64,000 nt of DNA, from assembly GCF_030013205.1 (NCBI RefSeq), contig NZ_CP122648.1, one strand, 5' to 3'. This document shows positions 31,876 to 52,227 of this stretch, one piece after another. How positions within the stretch are numbered: position 1 is the stretch's first letter; each line of letters opens with the position of its first letter. A program made the translations under genes and the position numbers. The stretch comes from Escherichia coli. Its GTDB lineage: Bacteria > Pseudomonadota > Gammaproteobacteria > Enterobacterales > Enterobacteriaceae. Below the pieces are notes generated by a model that did not search any database, was not told the origin of the DNA, and saw only the letters and a program-made list of their open reading frames with translations.

Positions 31876-31895
31876 TTAGGATTTTGTTATTTAAA
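31876..31895 (+). promoter_or_regulatory. GAD box (GadE binding site) upstream of gadA
   Basis: TTAGGATTTTGTTATTTAAA, matching the 20-bp GAD-box consensus, about 80 bp upstream of the gadA ATG. Confidence 0.7.
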
Positions 31896-34567: not shown

Positions 34568-34583
34568 AGTTTTACTCTGACAT

Positions 34584-34689
34584 AAAAAAAACCCGGCATA
34601 GGGGACCGGGAAGAGGATAGTCTGCCGTCTCCAGACTAATAAACCGTTATAACACTCCCTGTTGGCACGGGAAACTTTGTGCTCTCAGT
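34584..34689 (-). ncRNA. gadY: GadY small RNA, antisense to the gadX 3' end
   Basis: Minus-strand sequence ACTGAGAGCACAAAGTTTCCCGTGCCAACAGGGAG...CCCGGTCCCCTATGCCGGGTTTTTTTT matches my recollection of GadY and ends in a hairpin plus U-run. Confidence 0.75.
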
Positions 34690-34935
34690 AAGTTAAATAT
34701 AACTTTTACTGGAAATAAGATCAGCCATTTTTTTATAAACATAAGCTATACGCTGTGCGAAAATATATTCGTGTTGCATTTACTTATTATCAATTAACTG
34801 TTATGCAAAACTACTTTGTGGATAAATTTTGGTCCTACCAAATCTGGCAGTTTTTGCGCTAAGAAACAGTCTGGCATCATTTCATTAGTATACTGAAATT
34901 GAAATAATCGCAGTAATGAAATATAAGGGATAGTC

Positions 34936-39164: not shown

Positions 39165-40322
39165 TTATTGTTTCGATTCGGTGCTGGCGTTTTCCTGGCT
39201 GGAGGAAATTGCTCGTGCTTTGATACCCGGACGAATGCGTTGCAAACCGGAAACGATCACCCGATCGCCAGCCTGCAAGCCAGAGGTGACAACCCACTGG
39301 TCGCCGATGGCTTTGCTGGCTTCGATTTCGCGTAGCTGCACGACATCGTCTTTATCCAGAATGAGCGCCGTTGCTTTACCCTGGGCGTTGTGGGTGACGC
39401 CTTCCTGCGGCACCAGTAATACATTCTGGCGGCTACCTTCATCCACTAATGCCGTAACGTACATGCCAGGCAGCAAGTCACCATTTGGGTTGGGGAAAAT
39501 CGCCCGTAACGTCACGGAGCCCGTGGTTTCATCCACCGTCGGGTCGGAGAATTTCAGCGTGCCGGTCTGGCTGTAACGTTTACCATTTTCCAGATTGAGC
39601 TGTACTGGCGTACTGCCCTGAACCTGTTTGATTTGCCCACTGGCGACCTCTTCTTTCATACGCAAGAAATCCTGCACCGACTGCGTGAGATCGACATAAA
39701 TCGGGTCCAGACGTTGTACGGTAACCAGCGAATCTGCCTGATTAGCGGTAACGAGTGCGCCGACGGTCACCGACGATTTCCCGCTGACGCCCGTAATCGG
39801 CGAGGTGACATTCGCGTATTGCAAATTGATCGTCGCCTGTTCAACAGCCGCTTTGGCGACGGTGACATTGGCTTCTGCTTCATTCAGCTGGGTGCGCGCG
39901 GTGTCGTAATCCTGACGGCTAACGTAGTTGGTCTTCAGCAACGATGCCTGGCGGTTAAAGGTGATGCGGGCATTGCTGGCGGTAGAGAGCGCTTTCGCCA
40001 GCGTGCCTTTGGCGGAGTTCAGCTCGGCCTGTAAAGGTGCAGGATCAATCTGATACAGCGAATCGCCCTGGTTCACTTTATCGCCTTCGATAAAGTTGCG
40101 TTTAATGATAATACCGCCAACCTGGGGACGTATCTCGGCAACTTCATAAGGAACGGTTCTACCGGGCAATTCGCTCAATACATTGACCGAACCGGGGGAG
40201 AGTGTGACGACACCGACCTCAGGCGTCATGGCGGCGGCGTTTTCCGCCGATTTGTCATCGCAGGCGGTGAGCATCGCGCCGCAGAATAACAACGGTATTA
40301 ACAGCTTTCTTCTTCTGTTCAT
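39165..40322 (-). CDS. mdtE: RND efflux periplasmic adaptor (membrane fusion protein) lipoprotein
   Basis: 385 aa; lipobox LTAC; AcrA-like. Confidence 0.93.
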   Translation of the reverse strand: MNRRRKLLIPLLFCGAMLTACDDKSAENAAAMTPEVGVVTLSPGSVNVLSELPGRTVPYEVAEIRPQVGGIIIKRNFIEGDKVNQGDSLYQIDPAPLQAELNSAKGTLAKALSTASNARITFNRQASLLKTNYVSRQDYDTARTQLNEAEANVTVAKAAVEQATINLQYANVTSPITGVSGKSSVTVGALVTANQADSLVTVQRLDPIYVDLTQSVQDFLRMKEEVASGQIKQVQGSTPVQLNLENGKRYSQTGTLKFSDPTVDETTGSVTLRAIFPNPNGDLLPGMYVTALVDEGSRQNVLLVPQEGVTHNAQGKATALILDKDDVVQLREIEASKAIGDQWVVTSGLQAGDRVIVSGLQRIRPGIKARAISSSQENASTESKQ

Positions 40323-40660
40323 TTTAGTCCCTGAAAATTCTTGAGAAATAACGGTTCTTTAAATTGCGCGCGAGGAGAGATATGAGGGATTTACAGACCA
40401 GCGGCATAGTGGGGTTGTCAGCCAGTAAGGTGGGATACAGGCATAGTGATCGACATGGTGAGGTCAACGACAAAAAAAATGTTGCCGTTCTGCCAACAGT
40501 TCCTGCCAGCATTCGGGCAACGAAGGGTTCTACTGGTGGATACACATACCAGGGGAATAAAGTCGTTTTAACCTCTCCTTTAGTAATCACCGGGGGTAAT
40601 GAAATCAGCATCTGCATCCCTCGTCATGCCAGCCATCAATTTCAGTTGCTTATGTCCTGA

Positions 40661-41188
40661 CTAAAAATAAGATGTGATACCCAGGGTGACGATGTCGCTC
40701 ATACGTCTTAGTTTCAGCTTGTACATAATGTTGAATTTCTGAATCTTTAATGTTTGTTGCGAAATATTGAGCGTCGACGTGATATTGCTTTCATTTTTAT
40801 TTTTCAGAATCAGTTGCATAATTTTGAACTGATTATGTGAAAAACATAATTGTGAATTCTTATGGGGCAAGTGTTTACCATAAGTAATCTCAAGAAGATT
40901 TTTGATACTTTCTTTGCGGCTGACAAAATAAATAGGCGCTTTAGCTTTTAGTTTACTGATGTGATAAGGTGCCAAAACAATAATTCTCTCGGCATCTAAT
41001 TTCTCCAGAAATTTAATCGCTTCTTCATCAAGGATATGATTGTGATAGGTATCAATGATAACCTTGAAGGGTTTATTGCCTACTTTTTTGATCTCTGACA
41101 GGGAATTGATTTTTATCATTTCGTGATTATCTTTCAACTGCCAAAAGCCCTGTAAAAGAAAAGAATCTTTCGTCATGAGAAAAATCAT
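40661..41188 (-). CDS. gadE: LuxR-family acid-resistance activator
   Basis: ORF 40661..41266 trimmed to the ATG at 41188 (MIFLMTKDSF..., 175 aa); AT-rich. Confidence 0.88.
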   Translation of the reverse strand: MIFLMTKDSFLLQGFWQLKDNHEMIKINSLSEIKKVGNKPFKVIIDTYHNHILDEEAIKFLEKLDAERIIVLAPYHISKLKAKAPIYFVSRKESIKNLLEITYGKHLPHKNSQLCFSHNQFKIMQLILKNKNESNITSTLNISQQTLKIQKFNIMYKLKLRRMSDIVTLGITSYF

Positions 41189-41986
41189 AACTTGCTCCTT
41201 AGCCGTTATCGTTTCGAACATGTCATCCTTTTCATTATTTACATCCTTGTCCGAATCGTTGTTCAATATAGTAAACGCCTATAAGAACTTTGCCCTTCGT
41301 GAACTAATACGTCTATTAACACTAATCAATGCTTCAGATTTATCCATCACACACTCCATATATTGATCCTAAGTAAAATTCCTGGTTGTTATCAGTTTGC
41401 AAACGGCAAACAAAAACTTAACGTTTACGGATTACTGCCCAAGAATAAGTTATCAATAACCAGTTTGTGATCTCTGAAGAATATTACTAAAGTTAAAATG
41501 TAATCCGATTTAAATATCGAGTCTCCTTGTTTCGACTTAAGCTGGCAATTGGATTGCCAGCTTTCTTTTAACGCATTGAAATTACCTGAGTAAATAACTC
41601 ATTCATGTCTTCAGGTTTTTATATAGCGTCTGGAGACACGGATATTTATGCAATGTAATCAACGCCAGTTGCAAAAAAATGAACCCGGATTACTTATTTA
41701 ACCGCCCATAGCATCAACGCTTACGGAACTCTTTGTTCACTTTCCCACAGCACTTTTAAAACATTAAACCTGACTACGGAAAATATCAGCCATGATAATG
41801 TTTGAAATGGCTAATTTGCCATGGAATGAAAAAAATTAGATGAAATTCAGTAGGTTGAAATAATCATCAGCAGGTAATTATTTCAATGATAGTGCGCAAT
41901 TGATCTACAACGCTGTGTAGCGGAGAGAGTATTAATCGGATCATAGTCACATCAAGTGACTATGATCCGGGTGACAACAGGAATAA

Positions 41987-42559
41987 TTATTGCTGCTTAA
42001 CGAACAAACTGGCGAAGCTGAACAGGCTGGCGGCGCTAAATATCAGTTCAATACCCACCAGTGTGGAAACCAAAGTTACAGACACCATCGGCGTTGCACC
42101 AAGGAATATCCATGCAATGACGATATCCAGCACACCAATAACGAGCTGTAGCCAGCTGCCTTTCATTGAACGCTGACGATACCAACTCATCAGGCGAATA
42201 ACCCCTGCAACACAGAACAAACCGGCAATAAATGCCGCAATGGCAAAAATGCCCAGCTCCGGTGCGCGGATGAAGAAATAGCCGATCAATAAATAGGCGA
42301 CTGCGACGAGGAAACCGGATAATACCGGCCAGAAATTATGACTGCGGTTGCTGAATAATCCAACAATAAGCGCAACGCCCGAGCAGATTAATAATGCACC
42401 CACTACCGTGCTTAAAATATCGCCAGAGACGAACGGGAAACTGATACACAGCAACCCGACGATAAACAGCAACACGGCAATAAACTGGATTGCTCTGCGA
42501 TGCTTTTTCAGCATCTCCAGATCAAACTTCAAAATTGTTGCCTTATCTATATATAACAT
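41987..42559 (-). CDS. hdeD: acid-resistance membrane protein
   Basis: 190 aa, multi-TM; divergent from hdeAB. Confidence 0.9.
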   Translation of the reverse strand: MLYIDKATILKFDLEMLKKHRRAIQFIAVLLFIVGLLCISFPFVSGDILSTVVGALLICSGVALIVGLFSNRSHNFWPVLSGFLVAVAYLLIGYFFIRAPELGIFAIAAFIAGLFCVAGVIRLMSWYRQRSMKGSWLQLVIGVLDIVIAWIFLGATPMVSVTLVSTLVGIELIFSAASLFSFASLFVKQQ

Positions 42560-49954: not shown

Positions 49955-50244
49955 CACGTTTGCGCTTAACAAAACACGACCATATGGATAACAAAACCAT
50001 AGCATTTGCAAGGGATAACGCACAGCGCTCTTCACTCCTGATGGGGCATATCGTTTTGCCTGACAAAGAGGGCGTGCTTTTGCGTATTTGCCGAGATACC
50101 AGGCAATTTCATGGGATATAAACGCCTGTAAACTCACCCGGCGAATATTATCGCTCTGAATTTTAAATAAATTTATTTTTCGCCAGCCACCCCGGTATTA
50201 ACCCAGGCAGCCAGCATTTTTTATTTTCCTCATGGAGAATCGCT

Positions 50245-52227
50245 ATGTCACGTCCGCAATTTACCTCGTTGCGTTTGAGTTTGTTGGCTTTGGCTGTTTC
50301 TGCCACCTTGCCAACGTTTGCTTTTGCTACTGAAACCATGACCGTTACGGCAACGGGGAATGCCCGTAGTTCCTTCGAAGCGCCTATGATGGTCAGCGTC
50401 ATCGACACTTCCGCTCCTGAAAATCAAACGGCTACTTCAGCCACCGATCTGCTGCGTCATGTTCCTGGAATTACTCTTGATGGTACCGGACGAACCAACG
50501 GTCAGGATGTAAATATGCGTGGCTATGATCATCGCGGCGTGCTGGTTCTTGTCGATGGTGTTCGCCAGGGAACGGATACCGGACACCTGAATGGTACTTT
50601 TCTTGATCCGGCGCTGATCAAGCGTGTTGAGATTGTTCGCGGACCTTCAGCATTACTGTATGGCAGTGGCGCGCTGGGTGGAGTGATCTCCTACGATACG
50701 GTCGATGCAAAAGATTTATTGCAGGAAGGACAAAGTAGTGGTTTTCGTGTCTTTGGTACTGGCGGCACGGGGGACCATAGCCTGGGATTAGGCGCGAGCG
50801 CGTTTGGGCGAACTGAAAATCTGGATGGTATTGTGGCCTGGTCCAGTCGCGATCGGGGTGATTTACGCCAGAGCAATGGTGAAACCGCGCCGAATGACGA
50901 GTCCATTAATAACATGCTGGCGAAAGGGACCTGGCAAATTGATTCAGCCCAGTCTCTGAGCGGTTTAGTGCGTTACTACAACAACGACGCGCGTGAACCA
51001 AAAAATCCGCAGACCGTTGAAGCTTCTGATAGCAGCAACCCGATGGTTGATCGTTCTACAATTCAACGCGATGCGCAGCTTTCTTATAAACTCGCCCCGC
51101 AGGGCAACGACTGGTTAAATGCAGATGCAAAAATTTACTGGTCGGAAGTCCGTATTAATGCGCAAAACACGGGGAGTTCCGGCGAGTATCGTGAACAGAT
51201 AACAAAAGGAGCAAGGCTGGAGAACCGTTCCACTCTATTTGCCGACAGTTTCGCTTCTCACTTACTGACATATGGCGGTGAGTATTATCGTCAGGAACAA
51301 CATCCGGGCGGCGCGACGACGGGCTTCCCGCAAGCAAAAATCGATTTTAGCTCTGGCTGGCTACAGGATGAGATCACCTTACGCGATCTGCCGATTACCC
51401 TGCTTGGCGGAACCCGCTATGACAGTTATCGCGGTAGCAGCGACGGCTACAAAGATGTTGATGCTGACAAATGGTCATCTCGTGCGGGGATGACTATCAA
51501 CCCGACCAACTGGCTGATGTTATTTGGCTCATATGCCCAGGCATTCCGCGCCCCGACGATGGGCGAAATGTATAACGATTCTAAGCACTTCTCGATTGGT
51601 CGCTTCTATACCAACTATTGGGTGCCAAACCCGAACTTACGTCCGGAAACTAACGAAACTCAGGAGTACGGTTTTGGGCTGCGTTTTGATGACCTGATGT
51701 TGTCCAATGATGCCCTGGAATTTAAAGCCAGCTACTTTGATACCAAAGCGAAGGATTACATCTCCACGACCGTCGATTTCGCGGCGGCGACGACTATGTC
51801 GTATAACGTCCCGAACGCCAAAATCTGGGGCTGGGATGTGATGACGAAATATACCACTGATCTGTTTAGCCTTGATGTGGCCTATAACCGAACCCGCGGC
51901 AAAGACACCGATACCGGCGAATATATCTCCAGTATTAACCCGGATACCGTTACCAGTACCCTGAATATTCCGATCGCTCATAGTGGCTTCTCTGTTGGTT
52001 GGGTCGGTACGTTTGCCGATCGCTCAACACATATCAGCAGCAGCTACAGCAAACAACCTGGCTATGGCGTGAATGATTTCTACGTCAGTTATCAAGGACA
52101 ACAGGCGCTCAAAGGCATGACCACTACTTTGGTGTTGGGTAACGCTTTCGACAAAGAGTACTGGTCGCCACAAGGCATCCCACAGGATGGTCGTAATGGA
52201 AAAATTTTCGTGAGTTATCAATGGTAA
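50245..52227 (+). CDS. chuA: TonB-dependent outer-membrane haem/haemoglobin receptor
   Basis: 660 aa; signal peptide; TonB-dependent receptor architecture; C-terminal aromatic residue (...SYQW). Confidence 0.9.
   Translation: MSRPQFTSLRLSLLALAVSATLPTFAFATETMTVTATGNARSSFEAPMMVSVIDTSAPENQTATSATDLLRHVPGITLDGTGRTNGQDVNMRGYDHRGVLVLVDGVRQGTDTGHLNGTFLDPALIKRVEIVRGPSALLYGSGALGGVISYDTVDAKDLLQEGQSSGFRVFGTGGTGDHSLGLGASAFGRTENLDGIVAWSSRDRGDLRQSNGETAPNDESINNMLAKGTWQIDSAQSLSGLVRYYNNDAREPKNPQTVEASDSSNPMVDRSTIQRDAQLSYKLAPQGNDWLNADAKIYWSEVRINAQNTGSSGEYREQITKGARLENRSTLFADSFASHLLTYGGEYYRQEQHPGGATTGFPQAKIDFSSGWLQDEITLRDLPITLLGGTRYDSYRGSSDGYKDVDADKWSSRAGMTINPTNWLMLFGSYAQAFRAPTMGEMYNDSKHFSIGRFYTNYWVPNPNLRPETNETQEYGFGLRFDDLMLSNDALEFKASYFDTKAKDYISTTVDFAAATTMSYNVPNAKIWGWDVMTKYTTDLFSLDVAYNRTRGKDTDTGEYISSINPDTVTSTLNIPIAHSGFSVGWVGTFADRSTHISSSYSKQPGYGVNDFYVSYQGQQALKGMTTTLVLGNAFDKEYWSPQGIPQDGRNGKIFVSYQW

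Follow-up and report, generated by a model that had tools for sequence, protein, structure and literature searches.

In Escherichia coli K-12, the closest described system, gadE is preceded by a 798-bp hdeD-gadE intergenic region, known as the gadE "sensory integration" region, with transcript starts at -21, -124, -324/-317, and -566 from the gadE ATG, on which more than 10 regulators act (PMC3708157). The AT-rich gadE locus is covered by H-NS and StpA, with occupancy over hdeD-arrS-gadEF (PMC3708157, PMC11230228), and activators work at the nested gadE promoters (PMC3708157, PMC4222967). The gadE leader is moreover bound by CsrA, with an apparent KD of 138 nM (PMC11210196).

Small RNAs are part of the same system. 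The induction of ArrS depends on sigma-S and GadE, and ArrS activates cfa in trans (PMC6755755), while its pairing with the T3 leader and the RNase III-dependent processing of gadE mRNA lead to more GadE output (PMC6755755, PMC6212723, PMC8708148). GadF is a gadE 3' UTR sRNA that is processed from the gadE transcript and bound by Hfq (PMC5145812). Each has a described counterpart with unrelated sequence and targets, and the analogy is one of mechanism only: GadY, antisense in the gadX-gadW region, is like ArrS a cis-antisense RNA acting also in trans, and CpxQ, from the cpxP 3' UTR, resembles GadF in that one transcript supplies both a regulator mRNA and an sRNA (PMC5145812).

Here, we analyze the gadE locus in a stretch of 64,000 nucleotides from the E. 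coli contig NZ_CP122648.1 (assembly GCF_030013205.1), hereafter the window, which also contains GadY itself at 34579-34692. We conclude, with a probability of roughly 95%, that this is the gadE locus of the acid fitness island in its standard E. coli form, with the published control region and sRNAs.

Organization of the locus

The sequence, its open reading frames, and the alignment to K-12 place hdeD at 42559..41987, gadE at 41188..40661, with its ATG at 41188, and mdtE at 40322..39165, all three genes being on the minus strand. The gadE coding sequence (40661..41188) encodes 175 amino acids, and the protein is identical to that of K-12. The gene order of the island, supported by the open reading frames and by the annotation of K-12 and of a genome 100% identical over this segment, is gadA, gadX, gadW, mdtFE, gadE, hdeD, hdeAB, yhiD; hdeD and gadE run in the same direction with the control region between them, as expected for the acid fitness island. 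The initial annotation had described 41189-41986 as an AT-rich region of about 800 bp upstream of gadE, in keeping with the multi-promoter, multi-regulator control known for this gene, and had given a 338-bp gadE-mdtE spacer at 40323-40660. Both sets of coordinates prove exact: the hdeD-gadE control region (41189..41986, minus strand) measures 798 bp with 35.8% GC, as supported by the open reading frames, the K-12 alignment, and the published description (PMC3708157), and the spacer (40323..40660, minus strand) corresponds to the gadE 3' UTR within the gadE-mdtEF operon. The multi-promoter, multi-regulator character agrees with the same publication, and the sequences at the transcript starts are kept as in K-12.

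The control region is unusually long, since the median gap between open reading frames in the window is, by a crude estimate, only about 150 bp. It is also unusually AT-rich: the window as a whole has 50.0% GC, and only 3.6% of all 798-bp windows of the stretch are equally AT-rich. The AT-rich tract reaches beyond the intergenic DNA, extending from about 40485 to 42084 and taking in the gadE coding sequence (about 33% GC). This is expected of island DNA and would fit a view of the AT-rich spacer as a passive, horizontally acquired remnant, in which only the promoter-proximal 150 bp or so matter for gadE.

Two further observations concern the neighborhood of the locus. In a genome that is 100% identical over this segment, the PGAP annotation starts mdtE 48 nt downstream, giving a gene of 1110 nt compared to 1158 nt in K-12; the discrepancy between the two annotations covers window positions 40275-40322. 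Between yhiD and dctR, the acid fitness island of the window also contains the chu/shu heme-uptake locus, from 44351 to about 53400, an insertion absent from K-12, and the Rfam shuA/chuA thermoregulator model matches at 50216-50247 within it.

Comparison with K-12 and other E. coli

We aligned the hdeD-gadE-mdtE segment globally to positions 3656995-3660389 of E. coli K-12 MG1655. The two are collinear with no indels, and the flanking genes, the orientation, and the 798-bp length of the control region are all the same. The control region differs from K-12 by 21 substitutions (97.4% identity), gadE by one, the gadE-mdtE spacer by two (40571 and 40444, which flank GadF and lie outside it), hdeD by 12, and mdtE by 14. 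In the control region, nine of the substitutions crowd between -798 and -635, and nine more between -239 and -143. The 23 substitutions in the control region and the spacer all spare ArrS and GadF, and none comes within 9 nt of a mapped start, the nearest to the starts being those at -31 and -143. Divergence that removes the known promoters or sRNA elements, which would have spoken against the initial annotation, is thus not what we find.

Part of these differences is particular to one of the two strains. At -104 and -31, K-12 is the odd one out compared to the rest of the genus. Conversely, position 41331 (-143) is C in the window and T in K-12 and in all six other Escherichia loci; this site lies 19 nt upstream of the T1 start, within the P1 promoter spacer.

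A megablast search finds the segment 40323-41986 in 5415 of 5426 complete E. coli genomes, with 100% identity in swine and wild-boar O139:H1 and ETEC strains. The 798-bp control region itself is found in 5413 of the 5426 genomes and is missing entirely from 13. Over its whole length, it is at least 99% identical in only 194 of the 5413 genomes, and 90-95% identical in 663. E. coli strain 3059 (NZ_CP103559.1) matches over no more than the first 232 bp of the region, at a place annotated as a Tn3-family transposase; in this strain, the gadE control region is naturally disrupted.

Conservation across Escherichia

A scan of species representatives for GadE gave six usable loci, from the E. coli representative, Escherichia sp. 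MOD1-EC7003, strain E69, E. whittamii, E. albertii, and Escherichia sp. E1V33. Two further contigs, assigned to Flavobacterium paronense (NZ_JAUFQN010000010.1) and Streptomyces sp. DH24 (NZ_JARVKW010000110.1), carry E. coli hdeD-gadE-mdtE sequence, which in the former is K-12-like with single-base indel errors. Both are almost certainly contamination of public assemblies and, being judged as such, are left out of the conservation statistics. The order hdeD-gadE-mdtE is kept in all six loci, with an upstream region of 720-794 bp (33-36% GC) and a spacer of 338-363 bp.

As a near-neutral yardstick, we used the third codon positions of hdeD, gadE, and mdtE, which in the four non-coli species show 68-76% identity to the window. 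Segment identities to the window, measured in four non-coli Escherichia, reach 96.8% for ArrS, 95.8% for the P1 leader (-124..-1), 93.3% for the P3 block (-630..-545), 87.1% for GadF, and 83.9% for the promoter side of ArrS. Other segments are at 77.7% (the spacer downstream of GadF), 72.8% (-249..-171), and 28.7% (-544..-384, where deletions of 50-75 bp occur). The comparison with the six loci shows four blocks under constraint: the P3 block, ArrS and its promoter side, the P1 leader of 124 nt, and GadF. Between these blocks, the sequence has drifted or been lost by deletion.

This pattern bears directly on the passive-remnant view introduced above. The segments -544..-384 and -249..-171, at or below neutral conservation, with the first largely deleted elsewhere, are what such a remnant would look like. 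Nevertheless, the distal P3 block (93%) and ArrS (97%) are conserved far above synonymous sites, ArrS together with its promoter is nearly invariant within the species (5402 of 5411 E. coli genomes reach 99% identity or more), and published deletions show that the P3 region is needed for activation (PMC3708157). We therefore regard it as very improbable that only the promoter-proximal DNA matters, and favor the reading of the whole 798 bp as the standard gadE control region.

Transcript starts and regulator sites

Numbered from the gadE ATG, the published starts fall at 41754 (-566), 41512/41505 (-324/-317), 41312 (-124), and 41209 (-21). The P3 promoter block (41733..41818, minus strand) contains the T3 start and is followed by the variable middle part of the T3 leader (41572..41732, minus strand), largely deleted in non-coli Escherichia. 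The 124-nt leader of T1, from P1, covers 41189..41312 on the minus strand and includes the -21 start. We observe three GGA motifs in this leader, one of them in the Shine-Dalgarno sequence AAGGAG at 41200-41195.

Of the regulator sites, a pattern search recovers one that resembles a YdeO box, the strand-neutral inverted repeat TGAAAT-N18-ATTTCA at 41856..41885. It lies at -131..-102 from the T3 start, inside the interval of -131 to -1 in which YdeO boxes have been reported (PMC4222967), and both of its differences from K-12 (41867 and 41868) are confined to its spacer. The other searches in the gadE control region are less informative. The best match to the GAD box (TTAGGATTTTGTTATTTAAA) is 13/20, which is at background level and leaves the GadE site unplaced, and the EvgA half-site patterns have no exact match there. 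The high-affinity H-NS motif TCGATAAATT gives four matches with two mismatches, at a density that tracks AT content and is uninformative, and a generic sigma-70 scan, with eight matches against 8.2 expected, does not help in placing P1-P3. Elsewhere in the window, a perfect 20/20 GAD box occurs at 31876-31895 (plus strand), about 80 bp upstream of the gadA start codon.

An in-frame ATG is present on the minus strand at 41219-41221 (-33), 11 codons upstream of the annotated gadE start. It occurs in the window and in all other Escherichia compared, and is ATA in K-12 alone. As far as the sequence goes, an extended GadE isoform starting there could be a possibility; the annotated start has a much better Shine-Dalgarno.

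ArrS and the T2 ends

ArrS, which the initial annotation mentioned as described in the gadE leader without being able to place it, is present at 41500..41569 on the plus strand. Mapping of the RefSeq K-12 annotation (b4704) gives 70 of 70 nt identical to K-12 arrS, with its position relative to gadE unchanged. A terminator hairpin at 41539-41563, followed by TCTTTT, is found independently of the K-12 annotation; it has an 11-bp stem, invariant in five distinct sequences, before the UCUUUU tail. The fold of the whole RNA, at -20.2 kcal/mol (z -3.84), ends in this hairpin. Rfam 15 shows no match at the position of ArrS even at E <= 1. On the conserved promoter side (41438..41499, plus strand; identity measured across the genus), CTAAAGT at 41487-41493 ends 7 nt upstream of the annotated ArrS 5' end, and we infer from these letters only that it might be a sigma-S-like -10 element.

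The stretch of the gadE T3 leader to which ArrS is complementary, -381..-312, includes the T2 5' ends at -324/-317 (41512/41505). This raises an alternative that concerns T2 only, namely that these ends are not starts from P2 but are generated when RNase III cuts the ArrS:T3 duplex. Both ends being inside the 70-nt segment is consistent with such an origin, as are the reports that RNase III cuts within ArrS and that gadE regulation depends on RNase III (PMC6212723, PMC8708148), and a fusion carrying only P2/P4 is almost inactive anaerobically (PMC3708157). However, published work regards T2 as a start site, and a "gadEp2p3" probe is bound by YdeO (PMC4222967); a primary and a processed 5' end look the same in sequence. 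We consider cleavage a serious alternative, about half as probable as its opposite, and list T2 with the published starts in what follows.

GadF and the gadE-mdtE spacer

The guess of the initial annotation that the gadE-mdtE spacer could carry a 3'-UTR-derived sRNA is borne out by GadF, a 91-nt RNA at 40562..40472 on the minus strand. It maps from the RefSeq K-12 annotation (b4718) with no differences and is recovered independently by the Rfam family ES205 (RF02754), which matches 40543-40472 over model positions 1-72 of 72 with 105 bits, compared to a gathering score of 86. GadF shares its strand with gadE, starts 98 nt past the gadE stop codon, and reaches 99% identity or more in 5143 of 5413 E. 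coli genomes. Fold and alignment place its terminator stem at 40521-40481 and its U8 tail at 40479-40472. Across species, the positions of the ArrS and GadF terminator stems are either invariant or show one-sided changes that preserve the pairs.

The GadF terminator varies in the length of its T-tract. The window (40472-40479) and K-12 both have T8, whereas two loci of natural E. coli, L012 and L014, have T6 and T9, respectively, at about positions 1330-1340 of those loci. This variation might alter GadF termination or Hfq binding as well as read-through into mdtEF, and the three lengths may thereby tune the balance between stopping at GadF and reading on into the mdtEF efflux genes.

Candidate protein-coding frames

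Long non-coding stretches may also conceal unannotated protein genes, and we examined four candidates for this. The first is a sense frame of 97 codons (40617..40324, minus strand), which runs across GadF and has its stop 1 nt ahead of the mdtE ATG. The second, antisense to it on the plus strand and overlapping GadF, is an open reading frame of 92-98 aa at 40364-40660 that corresponds to the PGAP hypothetical protein WP_001551801.1 (92 aa). The third is a 63-aa open reading frame antisense to the P1 leader (41175-41366, plus strand), and the fourth a TTG-started N-terminal extension of GadE.

The sense frame is the most suggestive at first sight: it stays open in each of the seven other Escherichia sequences compared, even across an in-frame insertion of 9 or 12 nt, and this openness is seldom matched when alignment columns are shuffled (P = 0.006). 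Nevertheless, its substitutions are distributed about equally over codon positions 1, 2, and 3, and its dN/dS of about 0.5 is close to that of two control frames. The spacer downstream of GadF moreover evolves at a neutral rate when set against the 73-76% identity at third codon positions, and the T6 and T9 variants of natural E. coli shift the frame to 63 or 64 aa. A homologue search with the sense frame finds no relative outside Escherichia, and Pfam has no match for either the sense or the antisense frame. On codon positions, dN/dS, Pfam and homologue searches, and frameshifts, we reject the 97-codon frame as a gene.

The antisense frame over GadF is annotated by PGAP in most RefSeq E. coli genomes, which could be taken in its favor, but it is broken in E69 and E. 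albertii, and the hypothetical protein is probably a spurious annotation artifact. The 63-aa frame and the TTG extension are rejected as well, because indels of 1-2 nt at about -63 break both frames in non-coli species. A list of acid-stress Ribo-seq candidates contains none flanked by gadE and mdtE, which weighs little since that list was filtered for 10-70 aa. Taken together, it is very unlikely that the long non-coding stretches hide protein genes, and we retain their reading as the control region and 3' UTR of gadE.

A hairpin downstream of hdeD

At the other end of the control region, a perfect 14-bp hairpin occurs at 41937..41969 on the minus strand (-781..-749 from the gadE ATG), supported by fold and covariation. 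It starts 17 nt past the hdeD stop codon and folds at -25 kcal/mol (z -6.55). Among eight Escherichia sequences, 93.8% of the cells are paired and three pairs show compensatory changes, a covariation score reached by none of 500 shuffles; these changes amount essentially to one split between coli and non-coli, and thus to few independent events. The hairpin has no U-tract, a terminator scan gave no flag there, and a literature search on an hdeD terminator or hairpin found nothing specific. It may be an hdeD 3'-end structure, which may define the 3' end of the hdeD mRNA and shield the gadE control region from read-through. That this hairpin and the T-tract variation of GadF are both functional, neither being described as far as we found, is a tentative and rather doubtful proposal.

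Discussion

For the elements of the gadE locus, our analysis shows sequence identity, position, fold, and conservation, and these agree readily with the published model. That the elements are transcribed, bound by regulators, and processed in this strain as well is what we infer from published K-12 work. By analogy with K-12, H-NS and StpA would silence the AT-rich hdeD-gadE DNA, and this silencing would be relieved at the nested promoters by activators including EvgA, YdeO, GadE, GadX/GadW, and ArcA. The nested promoters would give rise to transcripts from -566 (T3), -324/-317 (T2), -124 (T1), and -21.

ArrS, from the opposite strand, would then pair perfectly with the T3 leader at -381..-312, leading to RNase III-dependent processing and increased GadE, and would presumably act in trans as well, for instance on cfa. 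The 124-nt leader would supply the ribosome-binding site and the GGA motifs bound by CsrA. Downstream, the gadE 3' UTR would yield the Hfq-binding GadF, ending at an intrinsic terminator, and read-through past this terminator would extend the transcript into mdtEF.

Everything central about the gadE control region, ArrS, and GadF is already published, and the locus reveals no new biology in this respect. Our additions are modest: a footprint of constraint over the 798 bp at the level of the genus, a PGAP open reading frame that is probably spurious, and a conserved hairpin after hdeD. Glutamate-dependent acid resistance, which allows E. coli to come through the stomach alive, has GadE as its master switch. 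The known control apparatus of GadE is intact and essentially K-12-like in this strain, so that the regulatory knowledge gained in K-12 is transferable to it.
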